DNA of 64,000 bases from Chloroflexota bacterium (GCA_036741355.1 DAINSK010000008.1:19757-83756); one strand, 5' to 3'. Numbered from the stretch's first letter, positions 10,299-31,820 are shown. A program made the numbers and translations. Notes: generated from the sequence alone by a model not told the origin.

Positions 10299-11849
10299 TC
10301 ACGCTGACGGCTCCGTAAGCGTGGCCGGGCCGCTGATGCAGACAAAGATGGCGTCCAGCCGGTTCAAGGTCGGCAGGTCGCTGGCCTGGGTCGCGCCCGG
10401 GAAGTATCCGCGGTAGCGGCCGCTACTCGGGTCCGAAAGCTTCCATATGCTAAGCAGCGATGCCTGCGGGCTGATGCCGTTGACCAGCGTGCCGGTAGGC
10501 GTATTATCCGCGAACGTGGATGGTACGTTGTTACAGCCGGCGGTAAGTGTGACGGTCCTGGATCCGCCGCTGATCGCCACCGAGGTCGTGGCTGCCACCG
10601 CGGCACCACTCGAATCCGTAACTGTTGCAACGGCTGTGTAGGTCCCGTTGGTGTTGTAGGTGTGCGAGGCGTTCGCGCAAGGGGCGCTGCTGTTGTTGTC
10701 GCCAAAGCTCCAAACGCAGGAGACGATGGTAGCGCCGGAATTCGTCGTGCTCGCGGTGGCGTTGAACGCGATCGGCGTGCCGCTGCTGCCCGTGTACGGC
10801 CCGCCCGTATTCGCCGTGACGCCGTTCGCCGTCGCGGTATTAGTGCCCGCTGTGCCGCCGCTCGAGGTGCCGCTCGAGGTGCCGCCGATCGTAGCTGTAG
10901 TCGTAGCCGAGCACGACTGGCTCGAGGAATCGGTTGCCGTCAGCGTAACGGTGTACGTTCCGGCCGCCGTGTAGGTATGGCTCGGGGACTGTCCGGATCC
11001 AGTGGTGTTGTCGCCGAAGCTCCATGAATACGAGCTGATCGTGGCCCCGGTGTTGAACGTCTGGGCGAAACCGCCGAAGCTGACGGGCTGATTGACTGCA
11101 CCGGTGTAGGGACCATTCGGCGCCACACGGACACTGCCGTTACAGGTCTGGCTGCCGCTGCCGCCCGTGCCCGTGACCGTCACGGTGACCGCGCCGCAGC
11201 CTACTCGACCGATTGAATCCGTGACCGTCAGTGTTACGAGATCGGTCCCGGTCGTGGAGTACCCGTGACTGGTTGTCGCGCCGATGCCGCTGCTGCCGTC
11301 ACCGAAGTTCCATAGGTAAGTGGCGGTGCCGGCCGCGCCGCTGACGCTAGAACTGAAGTTGACCGGTGTATTGACGGGCACATTGGTCCCATTCGCAATC
11401 ACGTTCACGGTGATCGGGTTCCCGGCAGTGGGGTTGCAACTCCCGGTAGTACCGCCGCTTCCGGTAATGGTCGCCGTGGTCGACACGCTGCCACCATTGC
11501 CGCATGAATCCTGCGCCTGAAACTGCACGATGTATGTTCCGGCCGTCGTGTATGGGTGAGTAACGCTTTGACCGCTGGCCGTTGTGGTATCGCCGAAAAC
11601 CCACGTAAAGGTTGGAGTACTGCACGGCGAACCGCCGGTCACGCTACCAAACATTGTAACCGCGTTGCCCGTCGTTCCCGTATATGGTCCCGTGGTTGCG
11701 ACTGTCAACGTCGCGGCGTGCACCGGTCGCGTCACGTGTGTACTTGCGAACAGAACCACAACCAACGGCGCCGCCCACAACAGTCGCCGGAGCAGCCGCA
11801 CGCCCGGTCCTTCAATAGTGGTTCCAGCGCCGGATGAAAGTCGACTCAT
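10299..11849 (-). CDS. secreted Thr/Gly/Ser-rich protein with four or more PKD-like repeats and a unique C-terminal domain
   Basis: A signal peptide (LLWAAPLVVVLFASTHV) is followed by repeated GPYTG...F..S....WxFGDG..S....H.Y...G.Y.V.L.V.D units. The start is probably M11 of the ORF (11849), though 11879 is possible. Confidence 0.7.
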   Translation of the reverse strand: MSRLSSGAGTTIEGPGVRLLRRLLWAAPLVVVLFASTHVTRPVHAATLTVATTGPYTGTTGNAVTMFGSVTGGSPCSTPTFTWVFGDTTTASGQSVTHPYTTAGTYIVQFQAQDSCGNGGSVSTTATITGSGGTTGSCNPTAGNPITVNVIANGTNVPVNTPVNFSSSVSGAAGTATYLWNFGDGSSGIGATTSHGYSTTGTDLVTLTVTDSIGRVGCGAVTVTVTGTGGSGSQTCNGSVRVAPNGPYTGAVNQPVSFGGFAQTFNTGATISSYSWSFGDNTTGSGQSPSHTYTAAGTYTVTLTATDSSSQSCSATTTATIGGTSSGTSSGGTAGTNTATANGVTANTGGPYTGSSGTPIAFNATASTTNSGATIVSCVWSFGDNNSSAPCANASHTYNTNGTYTAVATVTDSSGAAVAATTSVAISGGSRTVTLTAGCNNVPSTFADNTPTGTLVNGISPQASLLSIWKLSDPSSGRYRGYFPGATQASDLPTLNRLDAIFVCISGPATLTEPSA

Positions 11850-15984: not shown

Positions 15985-16014
15985 TTGTATGGGTATTGAG
16001 TAGAGAGGTATGAT
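15985..16014 (+). promoter_or_regulatory. candidate promoter for rpoD (TTGTAT, 18-nt spacer, TATGAT)
   Basis: An AT-richer patch lies between dnaG and rpoD. The -10 element overlaps the first ATG of the ORF track (16010), which argues that rpoD starts at 16037. Confidence 0.35.
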
Positions 16015-16036
16015 AGTTGTGCCGAAGAACAAGAAC

Positions 16037-17656
16037 ATGAGCCGTACGGATATCCTGGAACGTACCGAGGACCGGCGCGCGACCCTCTCGCCGTCTGACG
16101 GTCCACAAGGCCGCGAATCCACGCGAACCAAGCCGAAACTCGAGTTGCTTCAGCCTGATGAGAATGGACCCGGTGCGGCGGACTCCCTGATAGCACCGCT
16201 GCTGTCGAGCCGTGCCAAGGCCGCGGTGCTCGCGCCACTGGACGACATCGCCGAGCCGGACGTCATTCCGGGCAAGCTCGAGGAAGAGGAGGAGGAGGAA
16301 GAGGAAGAGGAAGAGGAAGTGCCCAGGAAGGGTATAGAGGCCGGCCTCCCTCTCGAAGAGCAGGAAGGGATCGACGATCCCGTCCGCATGTACCTGCGCG
16401 AGATTGGCAAGGTGTCGCTGCTTTCTGCCGACGACGAGAAGCGACTCGCCCGGCAGATGGAGGAAGGCAAGCACATCACCCGGCTCGAGCAGAGCTGGCA
16501 GCAGAGTATGGGCCGTCCCGCCCGGACGGCAGACGTGGTCTACATGCTCTTCATGGAGCTTGCCGACCTCGAGCCGATCATGAAGTCGATCATGGAATAC
16601 GCCGGCACGACTGCGAAGGACCTCGCCGGTATTATCGGCGACACGGCGCTGCGCAAGGTCATCGACGGCGAAATGGACCTGGAGGCGGCCGAGAAGGTTC
16701 GCCAGGACCACGGCTACCCGCAGGACGAGCAACTGCTGGCAGAGCACGCGATCGTCAGGCTCTCGATCGTTACCCATATCCTCAACCCAGACCTCGTCCG
16801 CGGGGTTCAGGACGCGGTTGGTCCGAAGGTTTCGCTCTTGCCGCCTCCGAACGACCTGCCGCAGCGGATAGTCGAGCATCCGAAGGCGCTCAAGCCGTTT
16901 GACGAACTGCTGCGCCGCCTGGACGACGAAGGCGCGCGTGCAGAAAAGCGACTAACCGAGGCCAACCTCCGCCTCGTTGTCTCTGTGGCAAAGAAGTACA
17001 TCGGTCGTGGCATGTCGCTGCTCGACCTCATCCAGGAAGGCAATATTGGCCTGATTCGGGCGGTCGAGAAGTTCGACTACCGCAAGGGCTACAAATTCAG
17101 CACGTACGCGACGTGGTGGATCCGACAGGCGATCACGCGCGCGATCGCCGACCAGGCACGGACGATCCGCATCCCCGTGCACATGGTTGAAACGATCAAC
17201 AAGCTGGTTCGTGTCAGCCGCAGGCTTGTGCAGGAGTATGGTCGCGAGCCGACAAGCGAAGAGATCGGACGCGGTATGGAAATCACGCCCGAGAAGGTGC
17301 GCGAAATCATCAAGGTTTCGCAGGAACCGGTGTCCTTGGAGACGCCGATCGGCGAGGAAGAGGACAGCCACCTCGGCGACTTCATCGAAGACCACGGCGC
17401 TCTGGCGCCGGCCGACGCCGCTTCGCACCAACTGCTCAAAGAGCAGGTCGAGGACGTGCTGGCATCGCTAACCGGCCGCGAGCGCCGGGTGCTGCAGCTT
17501 CGATTCGGTCTCGAAGACGGCCGCAGCCGCACCCTCGAAGAGGTCGGACGGGAGTTCGGCGTGACGCGCGAGCGCATTCGCCAGATCGAGGCCAAAGCAC
17601 TCCGCAAACTGCGCCATCCGTCCCGGTCCAAGAAGCTGAAGGATTATTTGGATTGA
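16037..17656 (+). CDS. rpoD: RNA polymerase primary sigma factor (sigma-70/RpoD)
   Basis: Regions 1.2 to 4 are present ([51 protein letters not shown]; region 4 [30 protein letters not shown]). The acidic 1.1-like region has a 20-residue Glu run. Confidence 0.95.
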
Positions 17657-17680
17657 AACCAGATGGGGGTTAGCCAACCA

Positions 17681-17899
17681 ATGCCGCTCTACGAGTATTA
17701 CTGCCCGTCTTGTCAGGCAAAGTTTGAGAAGCTTCGGTCGATGGCGTCCGCTGACGAGTCGGTGCGCTGCAATGCAGGCCACGAAGGGGCACGGCGCCTG
17801 ATCTCGGTCTTTGCCGTCAGCGGCCGCTCCGGAGAGCAGGAGACGCTGCCCGCCGCGGGCGGCTGCTGCGGTGGCGGCGGCTGCTCCTGCGGGCGGTGA
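17681..17899 (+). CDS. FmdB-family zinc-ribbon protein
   Basis: MPLYEYYCPSCQAKFEKL...VRCNAGH is a CxxC...CxxGH ribbon. It has a Gly/Cys-rich tail CCGGGGCSCGR. The start at 17681 follows the family consensus (MPxYEYxC), though the ORF can extend to 17663. Confidence 0.75.
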   Translation: MPLYEYYCPSCQAKFEKLRSMASADESVRCNAGHEGARRLISVFAVSGRSGEQETLPAAGGCCGGGGCSCGR

Positions 17900-17948
17900 A
17901 CCTCACCCCCTTCCCCTCTCCATCCTTGCGGATGGAGAGGGGCGATCC
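17900..17948. repeat. GC-rich palindromic repeat, copy 1 (left terminal inverted repeat of a MITE-like unit)
   Basis: The sequence is cctcacccccttc followed by a perfect 13-bp hairpin cccctctccatcc-ttgc-ggatggagagggg and then cgatcc. It starts 1 nt after the fmdB-like stop. Confidence 0.7.
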
Positions 17949-18000
17949 TGTTGCGCTGGAACGGACTGGTGGGAATGCGTGAAGATCGTTGTAGCCCCAC

Positions 18001-18392
18001 GTGGTGAGGGGAAGGGGGCCTGACGCCCGCAGTTATTTGCGCAGGCAGCAAACGACCGCGGAACAGACTTTCTGGGAAATGGTGCGGGATCGCCGCTTCG
18101 CCGGGTTCAAGTTTCGACGCCAGTATGCAATTGCCGCTTCATCACGGACTTCTACTGTGCAGAGTTGAAACTTGCCGTCGAGTTAGACGGCGAGGTCCAT
18201 AAGTCGCTCGCAGAACGCGACCGTGCCCGCAATGCCCTAATTTCCGATCACGCGAACCGGGTAGTACGCATTACCAACGACGAACTACTCGCAGATCCAC
18301 CAGCGGTCCTCGCAAAGCTACTCGCACTGTCAGGGCAACCAAGGATCGCCCCCTCTCCATCGCTTGGCGATGGAGAGGGGGATGGGGGGTGA
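18001..18392 (+). pseudogene. DUF559 (Vsr-like endonuclease fold) gene disrupted by a -1 frameshift
   Basis: Frame 1 reads ...RRQQTTAEQTFWEMVRDRRFAGFKFRRQYAIA and then hits a stop. Frame 3 continues ITDFYCAELKLAVELDGEVHKSLAERDRARNALISDHANRVVRITNDELL. Joined, these are the DUF559 consensus (FKFRRQ...PIG.YIVDFYC...ELDG), so a 1-nt deletion near 18150 is implied. Confidence 0.65.
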
Positions 18393-18394
18393 GG
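18343..18394. repeat. GC-rich palindromic repeat, copy 2 (inverted orientation relative to copy 1; right terminal inverted repeat)
   Basis: The sequence is ggatcg followed by a perfect 15-bp hairpin ccccctctccatcgc-ttg-gcgatggagaggggg and then gatggggggtgagg. Its reverse complement aligns with copy 1 along its entire length. Confidence 0.7.
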
Positions 18395-19207
18395 TTATCT
18401 TCCGCTGCTAACGAGCGGTAGATCTGGCGTGTGGTCGATTTCGGCTTCTGGCTTCTCTGCGGGCGGGACGGCCGCAATGGCCGGATGCGCATGGCGACGC
18501 AGGAAGACGAACGATGCGGCGCCGATGATCAGCGATTCCAGCACCGTCATTCCCGCGATCAGCAGCGTCGCGTCCTGCCAAAAGCCCTCGGGGAACATTT
18601 GCACAAGGTGATCCCGCGCCGGATCCAGTTGCCAGTAGTTGTTTCCGAAGCTCAGCTCGTGAAAGCGCAGAAAGAGTGAATCGAAGCTGCCGGTGGCTGC
18701 CAGCACGCCAAATGCCACGATGAGAACGACCGTCACCAGGCAGGTCTGCAACGCGCGCCTTGCGAGCGCCTCGAAGCCCTCTTCCTGCCCCCATACGAAG
18801 ACGCCGACGACGTAGGCGGCGACCAGGAAAAGGGCGATCGCCTCAACCGCGTACACGGCTCGCACGAGGCTCTTCACATCGTGCATGTGGAGAACCTCTT
18901 TCGAATTGAACAGCGGCACCACGTTCCCCGATTGGTCGTGGACCTTGGTGCGCAGGTAGTCGTCCGAGTTGAGGAAATAGGCGCGGATGTCCCGCGTTGC
19001 GTCGATCAGGTCCGACCGCGAGATGTGCGCGACCGAAGGGACATCGTAATGGTCGATGCTATACTGGTAGACACGTTGTTCGCTGAAAGCGAAACGAACG
19101 TTCGTGGTGAGGAGCGCCAACGGCAGCGCCACGAAGAACAAGGCGCGGACGTTCCAGCGCAGTAGACGCCCGGAATTCACTGCCCTCAGCACCGACCCTC
19201 TCTTCAC
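18395..19207 (-). CDS. integral membrane protein (N-terminal TM anchor, an extracytoplasmic domain, three C-terminal TM helices); function unknown
   Basis: Hydrophobic segments are ALFFVALPLALLTT, AIALFLVAAYVVGVFVW, LVTVVLIVAFGVLAA and ATLLIAGMTVLESLIIGAASFVFL. The ORF extends to 19294 but would then overlap the divergent 19239 gene. A GTG at 19207 is proposed as the start. Confidence 0.5.
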   Translation of the reverse strand: MKRGSVLRAVNSGRLLRWNVRALFFVALPLALLTTNVRFAFSEQRVYQYSIDHYDVPSVAHISRSDLIDATRDIRAYFLNSDDYLRTKVHDQSGNVVPLFNSKEVLHMHDVKSLVRAVYAVEAIALFLVAAYVVGVFVWGQEEGFEALARRALQTCLVTVVLIVAFGVLAATGSFDSLFLRFHELSFGNNYWQLDPARDHLVQMFPEGFWQDATLLIAGMTVLESLIIGAASFVFLRRHAHPAIAAVPPAEKPEAEIDHTPDLPLVSSGR

Positions 19208-28070: not shown

Positions 28071-28146
28071 GCCAAGGTAGCTCAGTCGGTAGAGCATGCG
28101 ACTGAAAATCGCAGTGTCGGCAGTTCGATTCTGCCCCTTGGCACCA
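28071..28146 (+). tRNA. tRNA-Phe (anticodon GAA)
   Basis: A cloverleaf with acceptor GCCAAGG/CCTTGGC, D-arm GCTC-AGTCGGTA-GAGC, anticodon arm TGCGA-CTGAAAA-TCGCA, T-arm GGCAG-TTCGATT-CTGCC and an encoded CCA. Confidence 0.9.
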
Positions 28147-28404
28147 GGGATCATGCGTGGAATCCGGCCGTTTGGCCAGAAGGGGTAATCTCGGGAGCCG
28201 AAGCGTAGGAGTGTCTGAGTTGCGGACTTCGTGTACCAGGCACCGGCCTCGCGCGGCGACGTTACAGCTGCCGGCAGAGAAGCCGATCACCGCGCGGCTC
28301 GGGGGGCCGCCCCGGCCCTTACGCGCCCGACATCGACGACGGCGTGAAGTCCGTCCCTTCCAGGAGTCGGGTCTGCTGGCGATGAAGCAGGTGGTCAAGA
28401 AGTG

Positions 28405-28468
28405 GTGAGGGAGGCGCGGCCCTCACCCCTCTTATCCCCTCTCCCAATACTGGGCGAGGGGACGATCC
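28405..28468. repeat. GC-rich palindromic repeat, copy 4
   Basis: A gtgaggg...ccctcac mini-hairpin, then the hairpin cccctctccca-atac-tgggcgagggg (one G:T position), then acgatcc. Confidence 0.6.
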
Positions 28469-28570
28469 AGCACGGGGACGACGCACCCCGTGGAACGGCT
28501 CGAACGGCTGTCGAGCGCCTAACCGCGGCTGTCCGGAATGCCAATAGCGCCCGGAGTCGGCAACCAGAGA

Positions 28571-28620
28571 CCGCCTCCCTCGCCCAGGATTGGGAGAGGG
28601 AGGACGGGAGCGTGAGGGCC
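28571..28620. repeat. GC-rich palindromic repeat, copy 5 (inverted orientation relative to copy 4)
   Basis: The hairpin cctccctcgccca-ggat-tgggagagggagg followed by ...cgtgagggcc. Its reverse complement matches copy 4, including the ggccctcac flank. Confidence 0.6.
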
Positions 28621-28652
28621 GTACGGTGCTACCGTAAAGTAGATGAGAACGG

Positions 28653-29027
28653 GTGGGTAAAGGAACTAGGGGACGCGGCGTGGTATCGAGCGGGGTAAAA
28701 GTAGTCGTAGAGCCGTCGGAGGGGCCGCTGGCGGAAGCGGTGCGCCGGCTGGTCGATCTGTTCCGGCCGGAGCGGATCTACCTGTTCGGCTCGCAGGCGC
28801 GCGGCGACGCGACCGAAGACAGCGACTACGATCTGATGGTCGTCGTACCCTCTGATGACGAGCCACGCTACCGCCGGGCCCAACGCGCGTACGGCGTTCT
28901 CTACGAAGTCGATCTGCCGGTCGACGTCCTGGTGCTCACGCACGACGAATTCGAACGACAAGCGCCGGTCGTCGCCTCACTCCCCGCAACGGTGCTGCGG
29001 GAGGGGCGGCTACTGTATGCGGACTGA
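28653..29027 (+). CDS. nucleotidyltransferase-domain protein (MNT-type, antitoxin-like)
   Basis: LFGSQARGDATEDSDYDLMVVV is the GS-x9-13-DxD polymerase-beta NTase motif. The 5' end is a GTG at 28653; a GTG at 28680 is an alternative. Confidence 0.7.
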   Translation: MGKGTRGRGVVSSGVKVVVEPSEGPLAEAVRRLVDLFRPERIYLFGSQARGDATEDSDYDLMVVVPSDDEPRYRRAQRAYGVLYEVDLPVDVLVLTHDEFERQAPVVASLPATVLREGRLLYAD

Positions 29028-29160
29028 GTACGCGGGCGAGTTTCGCTATCCCGGAGACGAGGACGTTCCTTCGATTGAGTCGACGAATGATGCGCTGGCT
29101 TTTGCCCGTCAGATCGTCCAGTTCGTCACTCTGCGCCTGCCGCCCGAGGCATCGGCGTGA
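29017..29160 (+). pseudogene. truncated HEPN-domain gene (only the C-terminal 47 aa remain)
   Basis: MRTEYAGEFRYPGDEDVPSIESTNDALAFARQIVQFV matches the C-terminal helix region (..RYP...p..eea.eal..A..iv.fv) of HEPN partners of MNT NTases. Its ATG overlaps the NTase stop by 11 nt, as in HEPN/MNT pairs, but about 70 N-terminal residues are missing. Confidence 0.5.
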
Positions 29161-29695
29161 ACCTGGCCGAGCTGCTGGCGGAGGATCTTGTCGTCTGGAT
29201 GAACGCGGTTCCGGACGGCGTGCCAAGGCGCGTGCTGCTCTGGCTGGACCCTGAGTCCACGTTTATACGAATGTTCGCGCCGGTGAGCCGGGCCCTCGCC
29301 GTACAACACGTTCGCCTGCTGCGACTGGAGCCGCCGGGGGGACAGCTCACCAATACGACTTTACCGTGCAGGCGGTGAACCAGAACCCGGCGAAGGAAGG
29401 CGCCGAAACGGCGCTTGCCTTCTTCATCTCGATGGTCTCAGCGCTGCTCGACCGTCGGCCCGACCCGACCACGGTGGTGGTCGGCGAGATGACCGTGCGC
29501 GGGTTGCTGCAGAAGGTCAGCAGCCTGCCCGAGCGCTTGCAATTAGCGTTGGAGGCCGGTGCAAAGCGAATCCTCATACCCAGTGAGAACAAACGCGACA
29601 TCGCCGACGTACCCGACGAAGTACTCAACAAGCTGCAGCCCGTCTTCTACACCGACCCGATGCACGCCGCCATCCGCGCGATGCGGCTCGAGTGA
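29157..29695 (+). pseudogene. Lon-like (S16) protease remnant: frameshifted fragments, with the catalytic Ser replaced
   Basis: The 29366..29695 ORF encodes KEGAETALAFFISMVSALLDRRPDPTTVVVGEMTVRGLL...ALEAGAKRILIPSENKRDIADVPDEVLNKLQPVFYTDPMHAAIRAM. This aligns with the Lon proteolytic domain (KDGPSAGVTMATAL...MTGEITLRG...AHRAGIKTVLIPEENKRDLEEIP) but has E in place of the active-site S and no upstream AAA+ module. The preceding 29157..29378 ORF is in another frame. Confidence 0.55.
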
Positions 29696-29872
29696 CCGAG
29701 TCCAGCACCCGGTTACCAGTTGCCGTGTCACGGAGAATGGGGTTACCAGGATAGACACAGCGAACGATAGTACGTCCAAACCGCTTGACAAATGATCTGA
29801 ATCTCTGAAAATCGGATATGCAACTTTACATGTCGCGCGGTCTCCCACGGACCTCGAGCAAGGTAGCGGGAT

Positions 29873-30226
29873 ATGAGCACTAGACCAGGTGAGCCTCCAA
29901 GCTTTATCACCACACGCATGGGCAAGCGAGGCACGCTCGTCATCCCTGCCGGCTTGCGCCAACAGATTGGGCTTGAAGCGGGCACTCCTGTTGTCGCCGA
30001 GGCACGAGACGGCGGCGTCTTCATTCGCCCCCTGGTCGGACGCGCCATCTCGTCCAAGCGGCGCCGCGCCGTCCTCGATGCGGCCAATCGTGCGTATGCG
30101 GCCCTGCGCGACAATCACAGCGCATGGGCGGCGGAGCAGACTGAGCGTACTGTATGGGATAGTTTTGCCTCGGAGACGCTGCCGCAGGACGTGTGGTCTG
30201 TGGATGACTCCCTCCCAGAGAAATAA
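29873..30226 (+). CDS. AbrB/MazE-like (SpoVT-AbrB swapped-hairpin) antitoxin-like protein, orphan
   Basis: MGKRGTLVIPAGLRQQIGLEAGTPVVAEARDGGVFIRP is a typical looped-hinge-helix DNA-binding fold. No cognate toxin gene lies downstream. Confidence 0.6.
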   Translation: MSTRPGEPPSFITTRMGKRGTLVIPAGLRQQIGLEAGTPVVAEARDGGVFIRPLVGRAISSKRRRAVLDAANRAYAALRDNHSAWAAEQTERTVWDSFASETLPQDVWSVDDSLPEK

Positions 30227-30375
30227 CGCCGCGCCACAACTTTTCCCAACGCGCCCGTCGCTCCAGGAATGAAGTTGTTGCTGGCGAAGGAACCATCGCG
30301 CTCCGGTGCGTGCGCGCGGTATCCTCGTTCGTGATGCCACACCCACGGCGCGTTTCCGGTAAGGATGGCGAGGCA

Positions 30376-30882
30376 ATGAAAGTATTCGACGCGGTGCGCA
30401 CCCTGACCGCTGTCCGGCGCTACACGGACCAATCCATCCCCGCTGACCTGGTGCGCCGCATCATGGAGTCCGCCTGGCTCACCGGCAGTTCCCGCAATGG
30501 CCAGCCGTGGCACTTCATCGCCGTGCAGGACAAAGCGATGCTTCGGCAGTTGGGCAACCTCGCGCGCACCGGGCCGTACATCGCCGACGCGGCGCTCGCC
30601 GTAGTCGTGGTCATGGAGGAGTCCGTATACAACGTGTCCGACGCCAGCCGTGCAGTGCAGTCCATGATGCTGACGGCCTGGGACGAGGGCGTGGCCTCGA
30701 ATTGGGTCGGCTTCGACAATCTGGAGTGGGCCAACGGCGTGCTGGAGATTCCGCCCGAGCTCAAGGTGCTGGCCATCGTACCGTTTGGTTATCCCCAGGT
30801 GCGCCTGGGACGCGGCAAGAAGGACCGCAAGCCATTAGCGGAGGTCGTGAGCAGTGAGCGGTACGGACAACCGTTTACGTAG
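30376..30882 (+). CDS. nitroreductase-family protein
   Basis: SSRNGQPWHFIAVQD is the (S/N)-x-x-N-x-Q-P-W-x-F FMN-binding motif. The C-terminal portion is EGVASNWVGF. Confidence 0.8.
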   Translation: MKVFDAVRTLTAVRRYTDQSIPADLVRRIMESAWLTGSSRNGQPWHFIAVQDKAMLRQLGNLARTGPYIADAALAVVVVMEESVYNVSDASRAVQSMMLTAWDEGVASNWVGFDNLEWANGVLEIPPELKVLAIVPFGYPQVRLGRGKKDRKPLAEVVSSERYGQPFT

Positions 30883-30927
30883 CCGCTGTGGCACCGAACG
30901 CAGCATGGAGACGGCTTTGGGCGGGCG

Positions 30928-31278
30928 TTATGGCAAGGTCGCATCAGCAAACGACCATTCCTTGTCGGTGTAGCGAAAGAGGATCTCCTGCGCCCGTTCC
31001 TCGTCGCTTGCCCGAACGCGAACGACAAGCGTGTTACATTGCCAGATGTTGCGCAGGAACTGGCTGGCGTGCTGGGTTCCCATGTCGGAGAGGATTAAAG
31101 CGTGCGCTTCGATGAGGATCACGTTGGTTGTGACTGACCGGTAGTGGGCATTGATGATATTACCAAGGATAGCACGGGCGTTGTCGTGATTGTCATCGCG
31201 ACGGTTGAGTAGAGCGCCATAGGAAGAGCTGTCATGGAAGACGCGGCGGAAACGAAGTGACCGGGGAAGGGCAACCAT
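30928..31278 (-). CDS. PIN-like toxin (VapC-like) of a type II TA pair
   Basis: 116 aa with a C-terminal ...WSFADATL (a PIN-like terminal Asp). The start is 4 nt from the stop of the upstream small gene. The assignment is tentative. Confidence 0.45.
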   Translation of the reverse strand: MVALPRSLRFRRVFHDSSSYGALLNRRDDNHDNARAILGNIINAHYRSVTTNVILIEAHALILSDMGTQHASQFLRNIWQCNTLVVRVRASDEERAQEILFRYTDKEWSFADATLP

Positions 31279-31281
31279 AGG

Positions 31282-31599
31282 TTATTTCGGGCGGTAGGCG
31301 CGAGCTAAAGCCTCATGCTTCTTGCCAGAGACGCCACCAGGAGTCTTACCCTCGCCGATGCTAATCAACCGAAAGAGCGCGTCATCGGGCTTGAGAATGC
31401 CGGTCTTGCGGCGGGCTCGGGGCTTTTGCGGTTGCCGGTTGAGACGCTCGTCAGCGTCGACTTGCTGCAGCGGAGCGATGGAAAGCGGCTTGCCCTCGAC
31501 ACGAACGACCTGCCGCTTGCCGCTCCTGGCAACGGCTTCAGCAGTCAGCATGAACTCTACCGCTGAAATAGTGTCTGGGCGGCCAGCTTCCCGAGTCAT
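31282..31599 (-). CDS. antitoxin-like small protein (VapB-type partner)
   Basis: 105 aa, basic, encoded immediately upstream of and coupled to the PIN-like gene. There is an AT-rich promoter patch upstream. Confidence 0.45.
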   Translation of the reverse strand: MTREAGRPDTISAVEFMLTAEAVARSGKRQVVRVEGKPLSIAPLQQVDADERLNRQPQKPRARRKTGILKPDDALFRLISIGEGKTPGGVSGKKHEALARAYRPK

Positions 31600-31820
31600 A
31601 TCTGTTTAACCTCGCGAACATATCTTACCAGATCGTTGAAAGTCATTTCTATGCAAGTCGTGATAGAAGCTCATGTACGGCCTTATGGTGTGTGAACCGC
31701 ATATAAAACTCATGAGTCGTCTAGAGGATCTCCAACCGCCCGCCTAGCTGCCCGTCCTTCGCCTCTCCGGTGCGCGCCCTCGTCCTGTACACTGGGCGGA
31801 GTTTATGTCCGGAGGCAGCG

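Follow-up and report, generated by a model that had tools for sequence, protein, structure and literature searches.

A gene-less inverted pair of BoxC/PIT/TM repeats in a Chloroflexota genome and its possible relationship to DUF559 nuclease cassettes

Introduction

BoxC/PIT repeats were reportedly described by Bachellier et al. in the 1990s and by Hoyne and Maher in 2000. To our knowledge, they have been orphan repeats since the 1990s, without a known origin or function.

The motif, first named BoxC and later the PIT element, follows the published TM pattern CCCTCNCCC N3-6 GGGNGAGGG N3 GGGNGAGGG (Holder et al., 2015; PMC4666352), and ITxF allowed a second loop of 1-6 nt. Table 1 of that work gives the 'TMECO' units of E. 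coli K-12, 23 in number and exemplified by CCCTCGCCCCTTTGGGGAGAGGGTTAGGGTGAGGGG. It includes CCCTCGCCCC..GGGGAGAGGG..GGGTGAGGGG, which bears the same G·A mismatch as the units studied here; this mismatched 'mm' type, with G·A at the same position, is the commonest in E. coli. At five E. coli loci two units occur in inverted configuration. Copy number varies from 1 to 29 per E. coli strain and Salmonella has none, while the strict TMECO pattern was found in 262 proteobacterial genomes and G/C-rich motifs of the TM kind are very abundant in Cyanobacteria (PMC4666352). In vitro the unit can adopt either a fold-back hairpin or an intrastrand triplex. A triplex in vivo was not observed by Holder et al., who also saw no connection of TMECO with mobile elements, and no functional class emerged from the neighbouring genes. 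The PIT elements of E. coli are without promoter or terminator activity, purine-motif triplexes cannot form in RNA, and TM loci in E. coli have been tied to local genomic instability (PMC4666352).

Here we describe two inverted pairs of such units in a window of 64,000 nt, i.e. the whole stretch of DNA that was analysed, from an uncultured Chloroflexota bacterium (GCA_036741355.1, DAINSK010000008.1:19757-83756). Among the sequences compared with the window, several JGI and ENA metagenomes contained contigs identical to it, and the closest named relatives of its RpoD were from Dehalococcoidia and Chloroflexota MAGs. An earlier note, made from the sequence alone, had described one of the pairs as a hairpin repeat that may function as transcribed RNA.

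Results

Layout of the mini element

The features of the window that are discussed below are collected in Table 1. The two hairpins of the gene-less mini element, CCCCTCTCCCA-ATAC-TGGGCGAGGGG on the left and CCTCCCTCGCCCA-GGAT-TGGGAGAGGGAGG on the right, were mutually reverse complementary at 23 of 24 positions (24-nt arms, 96%, with 116 nt between them according to the repeat finder). When up to three mismatches were allowed, the 24-mer occurred in the window at just these two places, on opposite strands, and 0 occurrences were expected in shuffled sequences. The outer flanks were inverted as well, with GGCCCTCAC at 28418-28426 and GTGAGGGCC at 28612-28620. The imperfect inverted ends, consisting of terminal box, hairpin and CGATCC, measured ∼45-50 nt each. 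Both the inverted pair and the shared ggccctcac flank had been noticed earlier and were borne out. The 13-nt fragment that abuts the left end was complementary to 28572-28584 at 12 of 13 positions and looks like a truncated additional TM arm. A 98-aa ORF running through the element (28402-28698) was without a Pfam match, in agreement with the earlier description of the spacer as non-coding.

The core CCCCTCTCC was matched five times in the window against 0.67 expected, and the other four matches were the sister hairpins at 17913-17942 and 18349-18381, which supports the proposed kinship with the copies upstream. In total, the regex search recovered four complete TM units, arranged as two inverted pairs in 64 kb, and there were two TM fragments, instead of the seven copies that had been counted previously. 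All window units lay outside recognisable genes, save for the overlap with the DUF559 stop codon.

Table 1. Coordinates of the repeat units and neighbouring features in the window.
Feature	Position	Strand	Evidence and remarks
TM-flanked DUF559 cassette	17900..18395	+	Regex and sequence reading; ACCTCACCCCC ... GGGGGGTGAGGT
Cassette TM unit 1	17901-17941	-	Regex
Cassette TM unit 2	18351-18394	+	Regex
DUF559 gene (Vsr-like PD-(D/E)xK nuclease)	18001..18392	+	Pfam PF04480 matches both halves
Degenerate TM fragment in cassette	18003-18018
tRNA-Phe	28071-28146		Rfam
13-nt fragment GGTGAGGGAGGCG	28404..28416	+	Inverted-repeat finder; abuts left end of mini element
Gene-less mini element, whole	28418..28620	none	∼203 bp; inverted termini GGCCCTCAC ... 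GTGAGGGCC
Left TM (BoxC/PIT-type) unit	28420..28460	-	Regex match, fold and exact pattern match; read on - as CCCTCGCCC-AGTATT-GGGAGAGGG-GATAAGAG-GGGTGAGGG
Left third box	28420-28428		Read on + strand
Left hairpin	28436-28461		Read on + strand
Central spacer, non-coding	28462..28573	none	Alignments with DUF559 cassette; starts (A)CGATCC, ends GGCAACCAGAGACCGCC, with GGCAACCA at 28559-28566
Right TM unit	28577..28618	+	CCCTCGCCC-AGGATT-GGGAGAGGG-AGGACGGGA-GCGTGAGGG
Right hairpin	28574-28603
Right third box	28610-28618		One base degenerate
Nucleotidyltransferase (MNT-type)	28680-29027		Pfam; short possible HEPN remnant
Lon_C-only fragment	29366-29695		Pfam
MazE/AbrB antitoxin	29873-30226		Pfam
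Further small ORFs, minus strand	30940-31600

Assignment to the BoxC/PIT/TM family

Read on the G-rich strand, each end of the mini element consisted of three blocks, CCCTCGCCC, a loop, GGGAGAGGG, a second loop and GGGTGAGGG; the third block of the right copy was GCGTGAGGG, one base off. The first loop was 6 nt long in both units (AGTATT and AGGATT), within the 3-6 nt of the family rule. The second loop measured 8 nt (GATAAGAG) on the left and 9-11 nt on the right, where the family rule has exactly 3 nt, and because of this longer loop the strict published regex gave no match in the window. With a second loop of 8-11 nt both ends matched the pattern, and 200 Markov resamples produced 0 matches. 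The three-block match places the window units in the BoxC/PIT/TM family, an assignment that is, on sequence comparison, close to certain. The earlier note had allowed that its copies might turn out to be a known REP/BIME-like family, and this is indeed what they are (PMC4666352). The mini element is therefore one copy of a known, widespread bacterial repeat and an ordinary feature of the genome.

The window units share with BoxC/PIT/TMECO the order CCCTC(T/G)CCC, loop, GGGAGAGGG, loop, GGGTGAGGG, as well as the G·A mismatched variant. Also common to both are the intergenic location in either orientation, the multiple copies, often in close inverted pairs, and the abundance in Cyanobacteria and also in Enterobacteria. 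They differ in the second loop, which has 8 and 11 nt in the window, typically ∼5 nt across phyla and 3 nt in TMECO, and in the third box of the right copy (GCGTGAGGG). Further, the third boxes of the window pair are outermost and enclose a ∼113-nt spacer, whereas those of the E. coli pairs are innermost and ∼16 nt apart, and the host is an uncultured member of the Chloroflexota, while strict TMECO units were reported from proteobacterial genomes. What is new here is the longer second loop and the pair with its third boxes outermost; the family itself is known.

Folding and conservation of the units

Each hairpin folded far better than its dinucleotide shuffles (z of -4 to -5.7), and the whole element folded as one long hairpin with a z of about -5 against shuffles. 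The stems contain a single odd pair; read on the + strand, the left copy has T·C there and the right copy has G·A, and ViennaRNA placed this pair in a 1x1 internal loop on both strands. The G:T position that the earlier note had seen in both hairpins is thus absent.

Covariation of the pairing was judged by anchored regex and pair counts. Loci were anchored on the third box alone and not selected for the hairpin. In these loci, the 8-9-bp core CCTCTCCC/GGAGAGGG was essentially invariant, i.e. the TM core is conserved at the level of sequence, beyond pairing alone. The G·A variant was present in 9 of 105 distinct units of this set. Around the core, pairing was maintained by different sequences. 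Where the arms lay far apart, the intervening bases were nearly always self-complementary and left loops of 3-5 nt. In the right hairpins of the mini elements all local pairs were kept (11/11) even where the sequence had drifted from that of the left hairpin, with which the cross pairing reached only 8-9 of 11.

Some units contained an extra short hairpin in the second loop, of varying and covarying sequence. These inserts, such as GGCGC-TTC-GCGCC or GACC-GAA-GGTC, were situated between the main hairpin and the third box and defined a sub-family (loci L034, L013, L002, L005, L040, L065, L069 and L092, and L131, L151, L152, L148, L129 and L144). An insert in the second loop whose ends are held together would be tolerable in a fold-back, triplex-like architecture; the inserts are compatible with such a fold, without proving one.

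The stable hairpins could be taken to indicate a transcribed structured RNA, be it a small RNA, a cis-regulatory element or a terminator, in which the hairpins act as RNA. That the element is neighboured by a tRNA gene on one side and by a toxin-antitoxin-type nucleotidyltransferase gene on the other might agree with this. The search for compensatory changes that had been suggested earlier was also positive, since stem pairing is kept across copies and the changes affect both the stems and the second-loop inserts. Such changes imply that a single-stranded fold matters and fit any such fold, RNA included, but they do not tell an RNA from a DNA strand. The argument from G:U pairing, on which the transcribed RNA had been proposed, fails because the position concerned is occupied by T·C on one strand and by G·A on its complement, and the 9-mer core is conserved beyond what pairing alone would need. 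Moreover, no promoter-like site was detected, terminator-like sites were absent between 27900 and 28900 (0 on either strand), no T-run follows either hairpin, and with respect to the genes beside them the units point either way. At the gathering score, tRNA-Phe was the sole feature of the whole window to pass an Rfam search. Between 28150 and 28700 (E <= 10) the best Rfam match scored 19.7 bits against a cut-off of 40 and belonged to an unrelated family; the best sub-threshold matches were to unrelated eukaryotic families with E >= 0.14. Together with the inactivity of PIT elements as promoters or terminators and the impossibility of purine-motif triplexes in RNA (PMC4666352), this makes a function as RNA very improbable.

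Surroundings of the element

The element was said to lie immediately 3' of tRNA-Phe. It is downstream of this gene, but 271 nt separate it from the last base of the tRNA (28146). The region downstream of tRNA-Phe (28150-31600) is a patchwork typical of a decayed island. In one strain variant (L210) a 7-nt insertion (CGTAAAC) and a G>A exchange at 28348 fuse the ORF 28157-28408 with the ORF of the mini element, which was called as a 182-aa 'gene'; this gene is almost certainly spurious.

The position 271 nt 3' of a tRNA, where a patchwork of toxin-antitoxin genes and gene fragments begins, might point to an attachment-site scar or an island boundary. In other samples, contigs (L211 and L212) break off within the tRNA; this suggests a content that varies between strains and could be read in the same way. 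However, the element does not resemble the 3' end of the tRNA, the pair is inverted and not direct, and the identical architecture is found at many unrelated loci. Only 2 of 227 TM matches were located within 500 bp of a tRNA, and both belong to the same cassette, so the adjacency to tRNA-Phe is incidental. An attachment scar at tRNA-Phe was rejected on these grounds; we regard it as the least probable of the explanations weighed here, and as hardly credible.

Distribution across genomes

The exact hairpin CCTCTCCCAATNCTGGGCGAGG (a 22-mer with one N) was present in at least 116 stretches of GTDB species representatives. Among the matches listed, the hosts were Chloroflexi/Thermomicrobiales, Armatimonadota, Cyanobacteria, Gemmatimonadota and a deltaproteobacterium. 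The in-register form common to these listed matches was GCCCTCACCCCC-(3-6 nt)-CCCCTCTCCCAATNCTGGGCGAGGGG, and the second loop of the cross-phylum relatives was mostly ∼5 nt long or a covarying hairpin insert. Again among the matches listed, single MAGs contained tens of TM copies, and many exact-hairpin matches lay at contig ends in some MAGs, with none in others. The E. coli unit was found in all complete E. coli genomes (5426/5426), at a median of 19 places.

Fifteen complete elements of 137-235 bp, with the same layout of ends plus spacer as 28418-28620, were identified in other MAGs, namely one Chloroflexi MAG and several Thermomicrobiales and Armatimonadota MAGs. In these, the terminal box and a hairpin preceded a lineage-specific interior, and the second hairpin and an inverted terminal box followed it. 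The flanks of 18 complete elements revealed no common direct repeat, no target-site duplication and no clean boundary; in one MAG the inverted symmetry extended further outward past the element ends. Strain variants, collected by exact-protein look-ups of neighbouring genes, all carried both units unchanged, and no empty site was found among them. A phage-borne origin was considered and rejected, as viral contigs gave 1 match in 2.9 million and plasmids one weak 44-nt match.

The sister unit and the DUF559 gene

The second inverted pair of the window encloses a DUF559 gene (Table 1). Compared with the intact copies in L118 and L198, this gene is split by a 1-base frameshift (a deletion) near 18143, and its stop codon lies within the GGTGAGG box. 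The frameshifted sequence was 100% identical in seven independent assemblies, and the frameshift is therefore genuine and not a sequencing error; the local DUF559 is either a true pseudogene or an unusual frameshifted gene. Intact DUF559 relatives, 73% and 68% identical, were found in cassettes with the same ends and other neighbours (an unrelated ORF, a tRNA-Ser). The intact cassette that most resembles that of the window is located ∼70 nt upstream of tRNA-Ser(GCT) (L118, 510-598; L198, 1094-1182) and is thereby a second case of a placement beside a tRNA.

The strain variants L202 and L203 are mosaic between 15500 and 20200, with flanks that differ by 2-7% and an identical 2.4-kb block (∼16250-18700) that contains the rpoD core, a Zn-ribbon gene and the DUF559 cassette, in strains that are otherwise 97% identical. 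This mosaic indicates recent recombination in the population. One boundary of the recombination block lies near the right end of the cassette. As the cassette is inside the identical block, its apparent 100% conservation is not cassette-specific. Elsewhere in the window, the primary sigma factor (16010-17656) has an unusual run of 13 glutamates in its N-terminal region, and three direct copies of a 48-nt segment with ∼300-nt spacing and 60-73% identity at 10691-11338 are probably a repeated domain in a coding region.

The mini element and the cassette have the terminal box, the hairpin and the CGATCC inside the left hairpin in common. Next to the right hairpin, on its inner side, both have GGCAACCA..GA.CGCC, and in the cassette this sequence forms the 3' end of the DUF559 ORF. 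The similarity between spacer and cassette is short, comprising 8 identical bases plus context. These common parts lend support to the earlier description of the mini element as a miniature version of the unit upstream.

The relation of TM units to DUF559 was examined in 80 loci returned by a metagenome search with an alignment of the core domain only. A TM unit was present within 300 bp of DUF559 in 42 of the 80 loci, at stereotyped distances. TM density was 1.04 per kb near DUF559 and 0.10 per kb in the remaining flanks, which is a raw 10-fold enrichment with coding and intergenic sequence pooled and, as a rough estimate per intergenic region, one of 4-5-fold. N- or C-terminal tails encoded by TM sequence, such as PSPPSGERVRVRG and PSPQPSPPMGERE, were found in 75 of 120 DUF559 homologues. 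Both orientations of the TM pair occurred around DUF559, with the third boxes distal or proximal. Conversely, among the matches listed just 3 of the 116 hairpin-selected loci had a DUF559 gene, a low share that is expected if most copies are non-autonomous. The association of TM units with DUF559 is thus both statistical and architectural. No description of it was found in the searchable literature on DUF559, ycjD, BoxC and TMECO/PIT, and the link is apparently unreported.

The ycjD locus of E. coli

In the examined region of E. coli K-12 (NC_000913.3, 1351100-1351800), ycjD is the sole annotated DUF559 gene. Its stop codon is covered by a TM-like hairpin, and 168 nt downstream follows TMECO no. 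9. With 154 nt between them, these hairpins make up an inverted TM pair, inside which lies a 39-nt duplicate of the ycjD 3' end with 90% identity. The gene was present in 3378 of 5426 E. coli genomes and occupies the site at which the eefRABCD operon is missing (PMC12817139). Judged by its sequence, the arrangement of the ycjD locus is the same as that of TM units and DUF559 in the window.

Discussion

At 203 bp, non-coding and with inverted ends, the mini element falls within the definition of a MITE (<300 bp). As in Correia/NEMIS, ERIC, RUP or Nezha, its terminal inverted repeats are long and imperfect, the element as a whole folds to a long hairpin, and many copies with different flanks exist in related genomes. 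There is also a longer, gene-bearing relative, the DUF559 cassette, which shares the ends and sits in different contexts; its local copy is frameshifted. In contrast to MITEs, no target-site duplication was visible in the flanks of the 18 elements, the gene of the longer relative encodes a Vsr-like DUF559 nuclease and no known transposase, and the termini are conserved across phyla around a lineage-specific interior.

REP, BIME and REPIN sequences resemble the TM units in that they are short, imperfectly palindromic and conserve an asymmetric (mismatched) position, and REPINs also in forming inverted doublets with a short spacer. The REP/RAYT system further offers the precedent of one or few genes flanked by repeats, with many orphan copies elsewhere. 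However, TM and REP are unrelated in sequence, each REP family is confined to a species while the TM unit is nearly identical across phyla, and the gene seen next to TM repeats is a DUF559 with a PD-(D/E)xK fold and not a RAYT, which is a Y1, IS200-like transposase. Homing endonucleases of the Vsr fold (I-Bth0305I type) have been grouped with Vsr/DUF559 (PMC3424549). What the cassette has in common with these is that a small, free-standing gene for a nuclease of the Vsr/DUF559 clan behaves like a component of a selfish insertion. Those genes reside in group I introns of phage genes, whereas the window cassette has no intron or intein and is flanked by hairpin repeats.

We consider it probable, with some reservation, that the element at 28418-28620 represents the BoxC/PIT/TM family in a gene-less, MITE-like form that spread as selfish DNA and stems from a TM-DUF559-TM cassette. 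The element would be a small, non-coding interspersed repeat whose ends are inverted BoxC/PIT/TM units, each made up of a hairpin on the near-invariant core CCCTC(T/G)CCC / GGGAGAGGG and a third box GGGTGAGGG on the same strand. It may have arisen as an internally deleted, non-autonomous derivative of a cassette like that at 17900-18395, and its derivation by internal deletion is plausible. The units would spread or persist at the level of DNA, as selfish sequences, and a protein would recognise their folded or duplex ends. The obvious candidate for this protein would be the Vsr-like DUF559 nuclease. To the host the element is most likely useless, and at most it may be a structure-prone, rearrangement-prone spot in the variable island downstream of tRNA-Phe. 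Since the strain variants offered no empty site and the flanks no target-site duplication, we infer mobility rather than observe it, and mobilisation by DUF559 is likewise something we infer. We know of no demonstrated transposase or homing activity of DUF559 on TM repeats.

A more far-reaching proposal, which we put forward tentatively and hold to be possible rather than probable, is that TM repeats are the cis ends or homing targets of tiny, pan-bacterial selfish cassettes with DUF559 as their only gene, and that gene-less pairs are non-autonomous. Both the element at 28418-28620 and the BoxC doublets of E. coli would then be non-autonomous derivatives of such cassettes. On DNA that is extruded or single-stranded, the conserved G·A / T·C mismatch of the hairpin could in this case be what the mismatch-type, Vsr-fold nuclease reads.

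Alternatively, the TM units may be DNA sites that serve the host, for protein binding, as a structural element or as a programmed pause site for replication or recombination, and the link to DUF559 would be secondary. Their counterparts would be the REP/BIME sites to which gyrase, IHF or Pol I bind, and DUF559 would home into pre-existing TM pairs. We know of no candidate host protein for TM units. The conservation of three 9-mers and a mismatched position from E. coli to Chloroflexi points to a sequence-specific reader, and the two orientations of the pair around DUF559 fit insertion into TM pairs equally well. The linkage of E. coli TM loci with local genomic instability (PMC4666352) may also speak for such sites. 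On the other hand, a copy number of 1 to 29 per E. coli strain with none in Salmonella is typical of selfish repeats, and no functional class was found among the neighbouring genes (PMC4666352). The many contig-end copies in some MAGs and their absence from others, among the matches listed, argue in the same direction. Sites that serve the host are thus an unlikely explanation, and spread as selfish DNA is preferred.

For the window itself the finding matters little, as it adds another copy of a long-known interspersed repeat. The link to DUF559, which came from comparing the two pairs of the window, is an interesting lead. The BoxC/TM unit, hitherto best known from Enterobacteria and Cyanobacteria, is present almost base for base in Chloroflexota, Armatimonadota and Gemmatimonadota, as MITE-like elements of ∼140-240 bp. 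If DUF559 is the partner of the TM repeats, the origin of BoxC/PIT and the function of DUF559/YcjD would be explained together.
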